From assembly GCA_036626215.1 (NCBI GenBank), contig JAZKSG010000002.1, positions 1 through 59,597 on the forward strand: a stretch of DNA of 59,597 nt, in the 5' to 3' direction. The stretch's first letter is position 1. Every line of letters starts with the position of its first letter. The notes beneath the pieces are model-generated. The model saw nothing but the letters and a program-made list of their open reading frames with translations. It searched no databases and had not been told where the DNA came from. The position numbers were made by a program, and so were the translations under genes. Origin of the DNA: Thermoplasmatota archaeon (GTDB taxonomy: Archaea; Thermoplasmatota; E2; DHVEG-1). Below, piece by piece: positions 7,802 through 58,041 of this stretch.

Positions 7802-7886
7802 GCAGGGGTAGCCAAGCATGGCCAACGGCGCAGCGTTCAGGGCGCTGTCCTGCAGAGGTCCAAGGGTTCAAATCCCTTCCCCTGCA
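7802..7886 (+). tRNA. tRNA-Leu (anticodon CAG), long variable arm
   Basis: Sequence GCAGGGGTAGCCAAGCATGGCCAACGGCGCAGCGTTCAGGGCGCTGTCCTGCAGAGGTCCAAGGGTTCAAATCCCTTCCCCTGCA. Acceptor stem GCAGGGG/CCCCTGC, anticodon stem CAGCG/CGCTG with loop TTCAGGG, T-loop TTCAAAT. Confidence 0.9.
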
Positions 7887-7965
7887 CTATCTATTTAACA
7901 AAAAAATGAGTATAAACCACTATCAGTTACACATGCAAATGAGGAAGACAAATAGCACATAGCTA

Positions 7966-38819: not shown

Positions 38820-39813
38820 CTACTTTTGTTTTTTTAGGGTGTAACCAAAGTTTTCAAAATATTCCTTCATAGTTTTATAAATAAGTTTCTCTGTAATCTC
38901 TACAGATTTAACTGTCTTGGTATGACGAGGTTCTACGAATCTACTGGCATCAAAATTTGTTTTTAAATCTAGAAAATCCAAGATGGCGCCGATGGTCTGG
39001 TTTGGTTTATTACAAAGATCTTCATATTTTATTGATACATAGTCTTTCTCAGGTATTTTATCGATGTTTTTAAGATAGTACTCTACATTCTTAGAGGAAC
39101 GTCGTATAAGTTCAAGTAATCCTATTGGGATTTTAGTGGAGAAAAATAATCTTAGAAAGTATCTAGAAATAGGGTTGTTAAAAAGTAGTTTATATTTTTT
39201 ATACATTAAACCAAAATATTCGTTTTTCTCTGTAAACCCTTTTTCTAGCATTCTTATCAGGGAGTTCAATACATCGATTGGGTTTCTATGGATAAATATA
39301 AATTTTGAGTTTGGAAACATTTTTTTTATGAATAAGAAAGTTGAAAAATCAAAAGGGTTTTTGAGTAATATAGGTTTTTCATTTTCTGAGATGTATTTTA
39401 TTTTTTTACATAGTGTTTCTATATAGGGGAGGGTGTCTGAGTTTAGATACCATGGGAAAACATATTCTGCATAGACAAATACGTATTCAACCGGTGATTC
39501 AGCAGATATAGATATATGGTCTGATCCTCTGTTATCAATATTTTTCTTGTTTATCGTATTATTTATCCTGTTTATAGTTTCCTTTTCTAAGTTTTTAATA
39601 TGGTTATATAACAGTTTTTCGTATTCTAAGATATGATATAGCCTAACTACGTTGAACTGATTTGTTTTATCAAGTATTTTGTATAATATGCTGGTTCCTG
39701 ATCGATGTTGTCCTACTATAAAAATAGGTTCAAAAGAGGTATCTTTAATTTTGTTTAGATACTTATCATCTGGACTATTTTTTTGTATGATTAATTATTG
39801 CCCCCTTAACCAT
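38820..39813 (-). pseudogene. Sulfotransferase gene broken by two 1-nt frameshifts at homopolymer runs
   Basis: The track shows only the 3' part. Upstream, the 5'-PSB motif IVGQHRSGTSILYKIL is in frame with it, but no start codon precedes it. The N-terminus (MVKGAIINHTKK / NSPDDKYLNKIKDTSFEP) lies in two other frames. Frame changes occur at the T8 run (39777-39784) and the A4 run (39720-39723). Confidence 0.6.
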
Positions 39814-40085
39814 AAATGAAAATATGGTTTTTTTATATAAAACATTATCTTTCCTTATTCAGCAGGGAAAAATTATTCTAATTTTCATAGCCTAAAAACC
39901 GAAGAAAATACAATGTTTTAACTGTATCATAATAAGCTTCAAATTCTTCAAAATTTGAGGGCGACATACAATTTAATGAATTAGTAAGGATAGGTAATAA
40001 TAGAAAACTATTGCCGAGCTCTAAAATCTTTAATTTTTGGATATGAAAATTATATTATTTAGATTGTCAGTTTAATAGAATTTCT

Positions 40086-40625
40086 TTAAAGTTTTGATAA
40101 TACATTTTGGAGTGAAAACGGTTTATAGTTTAGTAGTTCGGCACTAACATTTATTGTTTTGTTCTCTCTGTTTATCAAAGGATAATTCTTCAAATCATTA
40201 TTATGTTTATGCCCATGAATACTCCATCCATCCCACCAGCTAGGTATATATTCTGGGTCATGAGTTAACAAAAACTTTCTGCCATTATAGTGTATAATTA
40301 ATCTTGGAAAAAATTCTCTCCTTGTCTCATCGTGATTCCCTTTGATAACAACAATCTCTCCATTTAATTTGTTCAGCCAGTAGTCAGTCACTCTATTTCC
40401 TCTTCCAAATGTTAAATCTCCTAGAAAATAAACAACATCGTCTTTTCCAACTGTTTCATTCCATCTCTTCAGAATAGTGTTATTCATCTCACTAATTCTT
40501 TCGAAAGGTCGATTACAATACTTTATTATGTTATAATGATCTAAATGTAAATCACCGATAAAGAAAACATTTCTCTCCAAAATCTTAGACGAAAAACTAC
40601 GTCTATCGTTTGGATTCTCCCCCAT
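40086..40625 (-). CDS. Calcineurin-like metallophosphoesterase
   Basis: FFIGDLHLDH, FLGDLTFG, IKGNHD and GHKH motifs. Start proposed at MGENPND. The track ORF continues upstream into a pseudogene remnant. Confidence 0.7.
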   Translation of the reverse strand: MGENPNDRRSFSSKILERNVFFIGDLHLDHYNIIKYCNRPFERISEMNNTILKRWNETVGKDDVVYFLGDLTFGRGNRVTDYWLNKLNGEIVVIKGNHDETRREFFPRLIIHYNGRKFLLTHDPEYIPSWWDGWSIHGHKHNNDLKNYPLINRENKTINVSAELLNYKPFSLQNVLSKL

Positions 40626-42535: not shown

Positions 42536-42637
42536 ATTTCAATCCCACAATGGTCTTATTTTAACGAACTATAAGAGATTTGCGATACACCATTACCGCT
42601 AATAGCATTTCAATCCCATAATGGTCTTATTTTAACG
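42536..42637 (-). CRISPR. Orphan mini-CRISPR: two 30-nt repeats and one 41-nt spacer
   Basis: ATTTCAATCCCACAATGGTCTTATTTTAAC (42536-42565) and ATTTCAATCCCATAATGGTCTTATTTTAAC (42607-42636) differ by 1 nt. The reverse complement is GTTAAAATAAGACCATTGTGGGATTGAAAT, ending in the ATTGAAAN tag typical of archaeal type I/III repeats, hence the minus-strand call. A possible degenerate third repeat starts at 42670 (TTTTCAATAC...). No cas genes in the window. Confidence 0.55.
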
Positions 42638-43904: not shown

Positions 43905-43978
43905 AGCCGCCGGAGGGATTTGAACCCTCGACCTGCTGATTACGAATCAGCTGCTCCAGCCAACTAAGCTACGGCGGC
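43905..43978 (-). tRNA. tRNA-Thr (anticodon CGT)
   Basis: Reverse complement GCCGCCGTAGCTTAGTTGGCTGGAGCAGCTGATTCGTAATCAGCAGGTCGAGGGTTCAAATCCCTCCGGCGGCT. Anticodon stem GCTGA/TCAGC with loop TTCGTAA. Confidence 0.9.
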
Positions 43979-44201
43979 ATATCTATTGTTTTTTTTTAGA
44001 AAAGGTTGAATGAGTTGGATTATTAAAAAACTGACTGTAACTCTTATAACTTTTTTTAGTGAAAAAACATTGACTGTTTTAAAATTTAACTATCGTTCTG
44101 TAAGATAATCTGTCTTTATAACGTTTTTACAAAAAAAATAGCAAAAGTTATGAAAGCTTTATGTGATATCAAGACCACAGTTAAAGAGGTGATTGTTTTT
44201 T

Positions 44202-44911
44202 GTGAAAGATTCATTAAGCGGAGTCGATGAAGCGGGTAGAAAATAGGACTAAAAAAATAGGTTTTTTGGTTCTGTTTGCCTAGAGGTCCAGTCATCGGCC
44301 CATTGGTTGTTGCAGGTGTCAAAGTTAGAGATGATAAACTTCTCATTCAGAACAACGTACGTGATTCCAAAAAAATTGCTCCGAAGAGAAGAGAGTTTTT
44401 AGCTAAAGGAATAAAAAAAACTGCTCTGAAATGTGAAACTCTCGTTATCCCTGCATCAGATATTGACGATATGCGTAAAGTTATGACTATGAACGAGATT
44501 GAGGTAAATGCCTTTGTTAAAATTGTTAAAGGGTTGAAACCTGATATCTGTTATGTTGATTCTTCAGATGTTAACGAAGAGCGTTTCAAAAATGATATTC
44601 TTTCAGGTTTAAGTTTTAAAACAGAGATTGTCTCTAAACATAAAGCTGATGATATTTATCCTGTTGTAGGTGCTGCATCTATAATCGCTAAGACTACGAG
44701 AGATGCAAAAGTCAGAGAGATAGAAAAAAAACTTAGAAAAAAATTGGATAAACCCTTAGGTAGCGGATATCCCTCAGATCAGATTACACGAGAGTTTTTA
44801 GAGGAATGGATGAAAGAGTATGGTAAACTGCCGCCGTATACTCGTCGTTCTTGGAATACCGCAAAGAAGTTAGTAAAGAAATATAGTACAAAAAGTTTAG
44901 ATGAATTCTAA
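44202..44911 (+). CDS. rnhB: Ribonuclease HII, interrupted by a 44-nt intervening sequence (exon 1 is 44202-44239, exon 2 is 44284-44911)
   Basis: GTG at 44202 follows GAGGTGA and reads MKDSLSGVDEAGR, then hits TAG. The track ORF (44276..) starts at ...RGPVIGPLVVAGV in another frame. Removing 44 nt joins GVDEAG|RGPVIGP in frame (666 nt, 221 aa). Downstream motifs: DSKKI, YVDSSD, HKADDIYPVVGAASIIAK. Confidence 0.8.
44240..44283 (+). other. Candidate bulge-helix-bulge (BHB) intron within rnhB
   Basis: A 16-bp helix pairs 44241-44256 with 44262-44277 (loop ATAGG). A 3-nt bulge AGA sits at 44238-44240. A 4-bp helix pairs GGGU 44234-44237 with GCCU 44278-44281. A second 3-nt bulge AGA sits at 44282-44284 on the opposite strand. 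The outer exon-exon helix is weak (C44233-G44285), followed by 8 bp pairing 44223-44230 with 44292-44299. The exact boundaries can slide within the TAGA direct repeat without changing the product. Confidence 0.65.
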
Positions 44912-56855: not shown

Positions 56856-58041
56856 TTAGGGTGTTGAAAAATTAAATTAACTCTCCTGCTTTTCATTTAA
56901 AGCGGGATGCAATAAATGAAAAAACAGAGAGGGGTAACCCTCAGAAAGACCTTGAATATTTTAGATCTTTCTGATGCAAAGGATGTATTAGAAAGCAAGT
57001 ATAAATATACAACGGGTAAACCTGGAAGACCACCAATATCGCCCAAAGGACTCTTTCTATCTTTTCTCATAATGTTTCTAAGAATGGAATCCTACAGAGA
57101 CTACCAAACATTCTTAGAAAAAGACCACTTCTGGCGACGAACACTGGGATTTAAAAAAGTTCCAGATATAGGAACCTTCACCCATTTCCTAAAACGTATA
57201 GGAAAAAACACTTTCGAACAACTATTCCAAAACGTTGTACAACAACTTCTTGATGAAGGTTTTCTAAACCTTCACACCATTGCGATAGATGGAAGCATAA
57301 TACCAGCCCATCCAGATGACCCAGATGCAGAATGGGGATGGGATCATATAGAACAAAAACGTGTCTACGGATACAAAATACATACCAATGGTAGACACCA
57401 CTAGTGAACTACCAGTAGCAATCACAATAACCAAAGCAAAATGTCACGACAGCACACAGTTCAGGCCACTTTACAGAATAGTGAAAGAGTATAATACCCG
57501 TTTTCCCACCCGTTTTTTTCACTGCAGACAAAGGATATGACGCCGGCTATATCAGAAAAACACTACAGAAAGACAACATACAACCAGTTATCAAAGCAGC
57601 ACCTATTCCTTTTGAACCACACTATCCCAGCTGGTTCAAAGATAAATACCGAGAAAGAACTGGTGTCGAACGGTTCTTCTCCCGATTTAAACAACATCCG
57701 GATCTAAAAAAACAAAGAATCATAGGACGTAGAAATGTGGAAATCTACTGCAATATCATCTCTATTGGTATGCTCTTTGTTGGTTTTTTAAACAAACAAA
57801 ATGGTTTTTCACCACGTAGCGTAAAAACCTTTCTGAGAAACTATACCTAAAAACCCAAATGCTGGAAAAAAATGTTTTTCCGAGTTTTTGCTCCAATCTA
57901 TGATAGGAATATTTTCCAAAAATTCTAGAGATGGACAGTTTTTTTTATCTATATTTTGGAAGAATATACCAGAAATTGATTCTAAAGTTTGGAATCAATT
58001 ACAAAAAAATCATTTAGAACTATAATTTTTCAACAAGCTAA
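56856..58041 (+). mobile_element. IS4/IS5-superfamily insertion sequence (1186 bp) with inactivated transposase
   Basis: Terminal inverted repeats TTAGGGTGTTGAAAAATTA (56856-56874) and the reverse complement of 58023-58041, TTAGCTTGTTGAAAAATTA, match at 17 of 19 positions. Perfect 8-bp direct repeats TAAAAGGA flank the element at 56848-56855 and 58042-58049. Confidence 0.8.
56916..57850 (+). pseudogene. DDE transposase (IS5-like) split into three frames
   Basis: Frame 1 ends ...VYGYKIHTNGRHH*. The +1 frame from 57388 reads MVDTTSELPVAITITKAKCHDSTQF.... A third frame from 57521 reads TADKGYDAGYIRK...RTGVERFFSRFK.... The breaks are at CCAATGG (about 57386) and at the T7 run (57513-57519). Confidence 0.75.

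Follow-up and report, generated by a model that had tools for sequence, protein, structure and literature searches.

A predicted bulge-helix-bulge intron in the coding region of archaeal rnhB, shared at one site by Thermoplasmatota and DPANN genes

The 59,597-nucleotide contig JAZKSG010000002.1 (GenBank assembly GCA_036626215.1, Thermoplasmatota archaeon), which was analysed whole and is here called the window, carries a gene for RNase HII, rnhB, that is split at 44239/44240, 13 codons from its start, by a 44-nucleotide insert (44240-44283). The window has a G+C content of 35% and comes from an archaeon, as its gene content (TFIIB, RFC small subunit, archaeal type IV pilin, TYW3, Thi4) and its nearest RNase HII proteins, named Thermoplasmatales archaeon, show. 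The GTG at 44202 opens MKDSLSGVDEAGR, and the frame reaches GVDEAGR at 44220-44240 before AAA and a TAG stop at 44244-44246; RGPVIGPLVV restarts in another frame with the AGA at 44282 and runs to the TAA at 44909-44911. Deletion of 44240-44283 yields a single RNase HII open reading frame (ORF) of 221 amino acids, in which the catalytic motif DEAGRGPVIGP is whole. Both the split motif and the frame-restoring deletion had been described in an earlier, sequence-only reading of this DNA, and both hold at the nucleotide level. Because TAGA stands at either end of the insert, any deletion starting at 44237-44241 gives the identical product. Exon 1 codes MKDSLSGVDEAG(R) and includes the first catalytic Asp and Glu.

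For this gene, public gene callers and the ORF finder report only a 211-amino-acid fragment from the TTG at 44276 (MPRGPVIGP...). Its match to Pfam RNase_HII (PF01351) covers profile positions 8-198 of 199, and an exact-protein look-up of this truncated ORF gave no match. An Rfam search over the window returned only three tRNAs at the gathering score, with no group I, group II or other family at the insert; a ribozyme intron would need far more than 44 nucleotides.

The insert and its borders resemble a substrate of the tRNA splicing endonuclease. In archaeal pre-tRNAs, the canonical intron at position 37/38 folds into an hBHBh' structure (as in Marck and Grosjean 2003), two 3-nucleotide bulges with a 4-bp helix between them, and each bulge is cut after its second nucleotide. 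The rnhB insert shares with it the two 3-nucleotide bulges, the 4-bp helix between 5' exon and intron, the cut rule and the intron hairpin h' (Table 1). The central helix GGGU/GCCU, made of two G-C and two G-U pairs, and the two AGA bulges lie at 44234-44240 and 44278-44284, where the sequence-only reading had placed them. Its 'perfect' 16-bp hairpin does have 16 contiguous pairs, closed by a 5-nucleotide loop (44257-44261), and is perfect only if three G-U wobbles count as pairs. Cleavage after the second bulge nucleotide on each side removes 44240-44283 as proposed, restoring the Arg codon (AG/A, the slash marking the cut) and the ORF.

On folding, the 91-nucleotide region was more stable than all of 200 shuffled versions (z = -4.1), and the exact bulge-helix-bulge (BHB) fold lies 1.1 kcal/mol above the minimum free energy (MFE). 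The motif alone is nevertheless within reach of chance, whereas the comparative evidence is far beyond it. Scanning the whole window for BHB geometry with reading-frame rescue (4 bp, two bulges, hairpin and frame joining), a search for further introns that the sequence-only reading had recommended, was uninformative, giving 1390 matches in this AT-rich DNA. The case rests on relatives; without homology, the BHB motif is too simple to be told from chance in an AT-rich genome.

Among the nearest RNase HII proteins (65-72% identity, 218 amino acids, 'Thermoplasmatales archaeon'), all are uninterrupted except P0119, which begins MPKGPVIGP and whose contig has a 50-nucleotide insert at precisely the window's site; the ends of this insert are conserved and its middle differs. 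We then ran a structure-blind pattern, GATGAAGCNGGNAG-N{30,60}-GGNCCNRTNNTNGGNCC, on species-genome and metagenome collections; it specifies exon codons and a 30-60-nucleotide gap and imposes no pairing. The scan was confined to GATGAA with that gap, a wider form being GAYGARGCNGGN(AG/CG)N{10,150}GGNCCN. An rnhB gene with an insert after the AG of the Arg codon accounted for 13 of 14 genome matches and 26 of 27 metagenome matches. Asked whether they lack the 44 nucleotides, relatives give two answers: the closest are mostly uninterrupted, and 38 distinct rnhB genes carry an insert at the same position, 29-50 nucleotides long and in all three residues modulo 3. A further copy, with GAT GAG instead, is present in L053-L055. 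Insert-bearing records are labelled Thermoplasmatales/Thermoplasmata (Thermoplasmatota), Woesearchaeota and Nanoarchaeota, so that the insert is found in several archaeal phyla and is not, as had been supposed, peculiar to one lineage; a few labels ('bacterium', 'Methanosarcinales') are probably mis-binned, as those sequences cluster with DPANN. An assembly or sequencing artefact might be entertained for the window as a single sequence with nothing further, but the recurrence of homologous inserts in about 40 assemblies, made independently in different studies, reduces its probability to almost nothing, and we regard the 44 nucleotides as real.

Cuts placed by the tRNA rule, with a 4-bp helix ending 2 nucleotides before each cut and the cut after the second bulge nucleotide, give complete ORFs of ~215-240 amino acids, counted from the nearest in-frame start, in nearly all loci with a complete contig. 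At the nearest in-frame start codon, exon 1 measures 29-50 nucleotides in most of 41 tabulated loci, and in most copies 10-17 codons separate the insert from the start. An in-frame stop is present in 35 of 37 inserts. The insert-bearing genes are only 33-69% identical at the protein level, and exon 2 is an intact ORF in every one. Second introns were considered in L019 and L034 and excluded: the L019 contig sequence diverges after about residue 150, and the short L034 product is due to a single nonsense codon. Gene callers misannotate the interrupted genes as a truncated 211-amino-acid ORF, MP[RK]GPV... (P0001, P0119), and in L053-L055 (3563-4240) as a 225-amino-acid call with an out-of-frame start that reads through the insert (MRRVESKNKK...SPRGPVIGP).

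Covariation was scored on a fixed-register alignment, A1, of 37 distinct sequences. The central helix H forms four of four pairs in all 37 (100% paired), with 5' strands GGGU, CGGG, CGGU, AGGA, AGGG, UGGA, UGGC, AGGC and GGGG, each matched by its intron complement. The two outer pairs of H each occur as six pair types, and changes at the third, synonymous positions in the Ala and Gly codons go together with changes in the intron. In hairpin h' the first 6 bp are 91% paired, with double changes at all six pairs. For covariation the alignment scores 0.575, compared with 0.176 in shuffles, none of 500 of which scored as high, and pairing falls from 92.5% in register to 26-46% when the partners are slid. 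Circularity does not arise, as pairing was no part of the search pattern, and the covariation across the 37 homologous inserts supports the sequence-only proposal of a BHB intron within rnhB. Constrained to the BHB, the 37 sequences fold at a median of 0.9 kcal/mol above the MFE; the MFE structure itself contains helix H in 12 of 37 and the full BHB, with H formed and both bulges unpaired, in 9 of 37.

The alignment also bears on other ways of explaining a conserved insert. A miniature inverted-repeat transposable element (MITE)-like hairpin insertion with TAGA target duplication, leaving rnhB a pseudogene or the source of a truncated protein from TTG 44276, would account for the inverted repeat, for TAGA on both its sides in the window, and for gene callers that predict a fragment alone. 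We judge it very improbable, given the single copy in the window, the lack of a duplication in most relatives (for example AG/U...UG/A), the same nucleotide position in such divergent genes with exon 2 open throughout, and synonymous exon sites that co-vary with the insert; the shortened product would moreover be without the catalytic DE.

Translational bypassing of the T4 gene 60 type, with take-off at the AGA of 44238-40 and landing at the AGA of 44282-84, would make sense of identical AGA codons in the window, a close stop (AAA TAG), a hairpin opening the gap, and a gap of 44 nucleotides near the 50 of gene 60. The bulges of the relatives disfavor it strongly. The 5' bulge is AG followed by A, U or C in all relatives, and the 3' bulge is NN/A in 36 of 37 and NN/G in one of 37; 14 of 37 have 5' AGU or AGC and 3' NNA GGN, which provide no matching landing codon and would not yield Arg. 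Bypassing also gives no role to a 4-bp helix that co-varies between fixed 3-nucleotide bulges, and we consider it extremely unlikely.

Somewhat less remote, although still improbable, is that the conserved structure serves as a regulatory or processing element, either because EndA or another RNase destroys the mRNA there or because the hairpin controls translation start. Its location in the translation-initiation region, about 20 nucleotides from the start codon, is in keeping with such a role, as is the fact that splicing is so far predicted. Yet without exact excision, about 38 lineages would have an enzyme that lacks its first catalytic Asp and Glu, and whatever the insert length the cuts are always placed so that AG/A restores Arg and the frame.

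A second line of support for a BHB intron comes from the outer, exon-exon pairing, which the sequence-only reading had called imperfect. That description is incomplete. Adjoining the 3' bulge is one invariant C-G pair (the C of GCN with the G of GGN), then a 2x6 internal loop, and then, in the MFE fold of the window, an 8-bp distal helix that joins exon 1 GUCGAUGA (44223-44230) to exon 2 UCAUCGGC (44292-44299) and is 88.9% paired across the 37 sequences. Further pairs beside the 3' bulge are forbidden by coding constraints. The codons that form the exon 2 strand are used unusually: GTC (Val) stands at 74% at the site and 13% elsewhere in the same genes, ATC (Ile) at 77% and 17%, CTC (Leu) at 9/10 and 7%, and GGC/GGT (Gly) at 37/37 and 58%. 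At the two sites, xTC codons are present in 30/38 and 30/38 intron-bearing genes versus 0/9 and 1/9 intron-less orthologs (p = 1.8e-5 and 3e-4). These nine distinct intron-less orthologs include eight from the Thermoplasmatota clade of the window, most of which adjoin the same convergent response-regulator gene as the window's rnhB. The confinement of the codon bias to intron-bearing genes points to an exon-exon helix under selection only where the intron is present.

Taken together, we consider it highly probable that 44240-44283 is a genuine archaeal BHB intron in the rnhB coding region. Two steps of the proposed pathway were followed in silico, the pairing within the pre-mRNA and the fate of unspliced mRNA; closure, cutting and ligation we infer. 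In the pre-mRNA, GGGU (the last base of the Ala codon and the Gly codon) would pair with GCCU near the intron 3' end, giving the 4-bp central helix flanked by its AGA bulges. The 5' bulge would be closed by the 16-bp hairpin of the intron and the 3' bulge by the invariant C-G pair with the 8-bp distal helix, which would also tether the very short exon 1 (38 coding nucleotides) and hold it for ligation. The tRNA splicing endonuclease EndA would cut at 44239/40 and 44283/84, after the second bulge nucleotide, and an RtcB-type ligase would join AG to A in the Arg codon of DEAGRGPVIGP, yielding an active 221-amino-acid enzyme, a junction reading ...GCGGGTAG/AGGTCC... and an excised intron that is probably circularised. 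Unspliced mRNA would either end at the intron TAG or give the 211-amino-acid protein, lacking the first catalytic Asp/Glu.

Table 1. Features of the rnhB locus in the window (predicted structures and cuts included)
Feature	Coordinates	Strand	Remarks
tRNA-Thr(CGU)	43905..43978	-	upstream neighbour of locus, conserved
probable LAGLIDADG-winged-helix gene 3' remnant	44138..44197	+	weak match to P0160 C-terminus
Shine-Dalgarno-like GAGGTGAT	44186..44193	+	8 nt upstream of GTG start; from sequence
rnhB exon 1, 38 nt	44202..44239	+	GTG through AG of Arg codon
distal helix h, 5' strand GUCGAUGA	44223..44230	+	pairs with 44292-44299
central helix H, 5' strand GGGU	44234..44237	+	last base of Ala codon and Gly codon
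5' bulge AGA, 3 nt	44238..44240	+	predicted cut 44239/44240
candidate BHB intron, 44 nt	44240..44283	+	TAG stop in frame, 44244-44246
intron hairpin h', 16 bp (13 Watson-Crick, 3 G-U)	44241..44277	+	44241-44256 with 44262-44277
central helix H, 3' strand GCCU	44278..44281	+	pairs with 44234-44237
3' bulge AGA, 3 nt	44282..44284	+	predicted cut 44283/44284
rnhB exon 2	44284..44911	+	A of Arg codon through TAA
distal helix h, 3' strand UCAUCGGC	44292..44299	+	codons GTC ATC GGC

Several points weigh against splicing as set out here. The evidence for it is drawn from DNA and predicted proteins, and a set of 5.8 billion proteins contained no spliced-form protein identical to that of the window. 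The window sequence's own MFE structure differs from the BHB fold. The one-pair helix beside the 3' bulge departs from strict hBHBh', and that a homodimeric enzyme can cleave it is only presumed. EndA and RtcB were not found among the scanned ORFs of the window, so their presence and type in the organism are assumed, and the genome may contain another intact copy of rnhB.

The sequence-only reading had argued that an intron in rnhB would imply an endonuclease of relaxed specificity. This is not required, because the 3-4-3 core is canonical and euryarchaeal homodimers, of the kind present in Thermoplasmatales and halophiles, cut BHBs in mRNA contexts. The homodimeric Ferroplasma enzyme cleaves minimal BHB substrates and also BHB introns inserted into mRNAs (PMC8707768), and in Haloferax a 46-nucleotide BHB intron in the mRNA leader (5' untranslated region, UTR) of HVO_1309 is cut in vitro, the endonuclease being of the homodimer type (PMC7714728).

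To place the intron in the history of the gene, we compared it with a neighbour-joining tree of RNase HII. Within the Thermoplasmatota clade, intron-bearing and intron-less genes are interleaved as sister pairs (by amino acid identity, L016/P0034 at 87% and L008/P0120 at 86.5%), and the introns of this clade share the ends AGA(A/G)AAUA(G/A)G...(C/U)UAUU(U/C)GCC(U/C). Interleaved presence combined with shared intron ends points to repeated loss or population polymorphism over shared ancestry. In DPANN copies the hairpin sequences are unrelated, and the site is identical. The intron-less rnhB genes of L052 (501-1157) and L056/L061 read DEAGKGP, with Lys (AAA/AAG) replacing the otherwise invariant Arg, which may mark a resistant allele or be no more than a substitution that is tolerated. 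In the intron-less orthologs L043-L052, and in L003, a conserved CCGCAACATCTTTTTAC box lies ~24 nucleotides before ATG ATT TGT and suggests a leaderless rnhB mRNA; copies with a LAGLIDADG gene or its scar upstream have a Shine-Dalgarno sequence and a GTG start three codons further upstream.

This LAGLIDADG gene is a recurrent neighbour of rnhB. In L006/L024 and L036 the exon-1 frame is open for ~340 codons upstream and encodes a protein in which two LAGLIDADG motifs are joined to tandem winged helices at the C terminus. Directly upstream of rnhB, L006/24, L036, L007, L038 and L008 carry full copies whose stop overlaps or abuts the rnhB start. L010 has a broken copy, L032 and L002 have remnants, and the L030 copy is ended by the contig edge; L053-L061 are likewise listed with a LAGLIDADG gene directly upstream of rnhB. 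The family numbers 378 members of ~340 amino acids from DPANN and 'Euryarchaeota' records. In 36 sequences the motifs G-L-W-x-A-E-G and G-F-x-G-E-G are invariant or nearly so, with both acidic residues kept. A sequence search of the protein against the PDB returned noise only, so that fold comparison was needed, and its Pfam LAGLIDADG_3 match is below cut-off. An AlphaFold2 model (pLDDT 92.8) gives as top PDB matches I-DmoI (the best, TMt 0.64), I-Tsp061I and PI-SceI, and also the bI3 maturase; the modelled chain appears to adopt the alpha-beta-beta-alpha-beta-beta-alpha double-domain fold of LAGLIDADG endonucleases. I-DmoI and other LAGLIDADG homing endonucleases are encoded within archaeal rRNA BHB introns.

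The endonuclease gene adjoins rnhB in 11 of 11 contexts. Two family members picked regardless of rnhB both adjoin it, one beside an intron-bearing rnhB (on a 961-kb contig) and the other beside an intron-less DEAGKGP rnhB. Its phylogeny conflicts with the RNase HII phylogeny: L006 and L007 are 75% identical in RNase HII and only 40% in the endonuclease, and L007 (Woesearchaeota) and L008 (Thermoplasmata) are 49% identical in the endonuclease versus 38% in RNase HII. The gene order in L008 and L010 is tRNA-Thr, promoter CCGCAACATCTTTTTA, endonuclease gene, rnhB; in the window it is the same tRNA-Thr, about 220 nucleotides, and rnhB. The stretch at 44138-44197 of the window matches the P0160 C-terminus over 20 amino acids (50% identity; E = 0.005, the space searched being very small), a match that is weak alone. 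It keeps the AAAGAGGTGATTGT...GTGA junction, which serves as ribosome-binding site and start of rnhB and recurs in relatives that still have the upstream gene, and the Shine-Dalgarno-like GAGGTGAT doubles as K-E-V-I codons of the lost gene. We regard 44138-44197 as probably the scar of a deleted endonuclease gene.

The intron lies ~30 nucleotides from the endonuclease gene. One tentative explanation, which we hold to be possible but rather doubtful, is a composite mobile element made up of the rnhB mini-intron and a free-standing I-DmoI-like endonuclease inserted between the rnhB promoter and start codon. In empty alleles, the endonuclease would target the ultra-conserved DNA that codes for DEAGRGP, and the ORF-less BHB intron would split, and so protect, that target or would hitch-hike by co-conversion. 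The association is non-exclusive, as L003 has the intron with a native upstream region and L056 the endonuclease without an intron. If true, such an element would explain the site common to archaeal phyla, the patchy presence of the intron among close relatives and the endonuclease scar in the window. It would also be an archaeal counterpart, spliced by protein enzymes, of the phage 'collaborative homing' that Zeng, Bonocora and Shub reportedly described in 2009, in which ORF-less group I introns are paired with a neighbouring free-standing endonuclease. The upstream protein of the relatives resembles I-DmoI in its predicted fold, with both acidic residues, and, as in the phage systems, its gene stands close to an ORF-less intron. 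The gene is not part of the intron but lies upstream of the host gene, the target site and activity of its product are putative, and it is also found beside an intron-less rnhB.

Elsewhere in the window, two 30-nucleotide CRISPR-like repeats GTTAAAATAAGACCATT(A/G)TGGGATTGAAAT with a 41-nucleotide spacer lie on the minus strand (42536-42565 and 42607-42636), upstream of a GT4 glycosyltransferase ORF. With no cas genes among the scanned ORFs, the pair may be an orphan mini-array. The GT4 gene was considered as another 5'-truncated intron case and set aside, its upstream region holding the repeat pair instead. A sulfotransferase ORF at 38820-39320 (-) covers Pfam positions 121-213 of 216 only, the C-terminal part, and ~760 nucleotides upstream of it (39320-40086) contain no long ORF; it is probably a decaying gene remnant, and was rejected as another intron-split gene for want of an upstream half or a candidate insert. 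The 162-amino-acid ORF at 56916-57404 (+) has only the N-terminal domain of a DUF772 transposase and is likely an insertion sequence (IS) element fragment. ARAGORN found an 86-nucleotide tRNA-Leu(CAG) at 7802-7887 (+) that the Rfam tRNA model did not report at its gathering score; the remaining three window tRNAs were detected by both.

Among known systems, the closest is the cbf5 intron of Crenarchaeota (Desulfurococcales and Sulfolobales; Watanabe 2002, Yokobori 2009, PMC2738675), which is likewise a short, ORF-less, BHB-type intron within a protein-encoding gene, removed by the tRNA splicing endonuclease and a ligase (as predicted for rnhB) and gained and lost patchily among relatives. The rnhB intron differs in its host gene and in its hosts, Thermoplasmatota and DPANN, whose endonucleases are other than the crenarchaeal heterotetramer. 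Its 3-4-3 core has the canonical form, cbf5 motifs being relaxed in many cases, it sits close to the start codon in most copies, and its distal exon-exon helix appears to be selected; splicing of cbf5 is experimental and that of rnhB is predicted from sequence. Membership in the cbf5 intron family was rejected, as the host gene encodes RNase HII (PF01351) and the lineage is Thermoplasmatota-like. The HVO_1309 intron is similar in being a BHB intron of like size (46 versus 44 nucleotides) in a euryarchaeal mRNA, but it lies in an untranslated leader where no frame need be restored, whereas rnhB requires nucleotide-exact excision. The pre-tRNA introns differ in that the rnhB substrate is an mRNA and its outer helix consists of one base pair, a loop and the 8-bp distal helix, not a contiguous anticodon stem.

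In the literature searched, BHB introns in coding regions are described for cbf5 only, as the sequence-only reading had stated, although its statement about protein-coding genes overlooked the 5'-UTR intron of Haloferax HVO_1309 (PMC7714728). Literature up to 2025-26, subscription literature lying outside its scope, makes no mention of an intron in rnhB, and a prior description is possible. With this reservation, rnhB would be the second protein-coding gene known with a BHB intron.

For more than 20 years BHB introns in coding regions have rested on cbf5, in a single phylum, and have been tied to the relaxed heterotetrameric endonuclease of Crenarchaeota. The conserved rnhB case, if spliced as predicted, would widen, in phylogeny as well as in enzymology, the known reach of the tRNA machinery in splicing mRNA. 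The intron would also explain a recurrent misannotation, in which RNase HII is left N-terminally truncated or given a false N-terminus. It offers a compact test substrate of ~100 nucleotides with natural compensatory variants, and its neighbouring putative homing-endonuclease gene makes the movement of ORF-less BHB introns directly testable.

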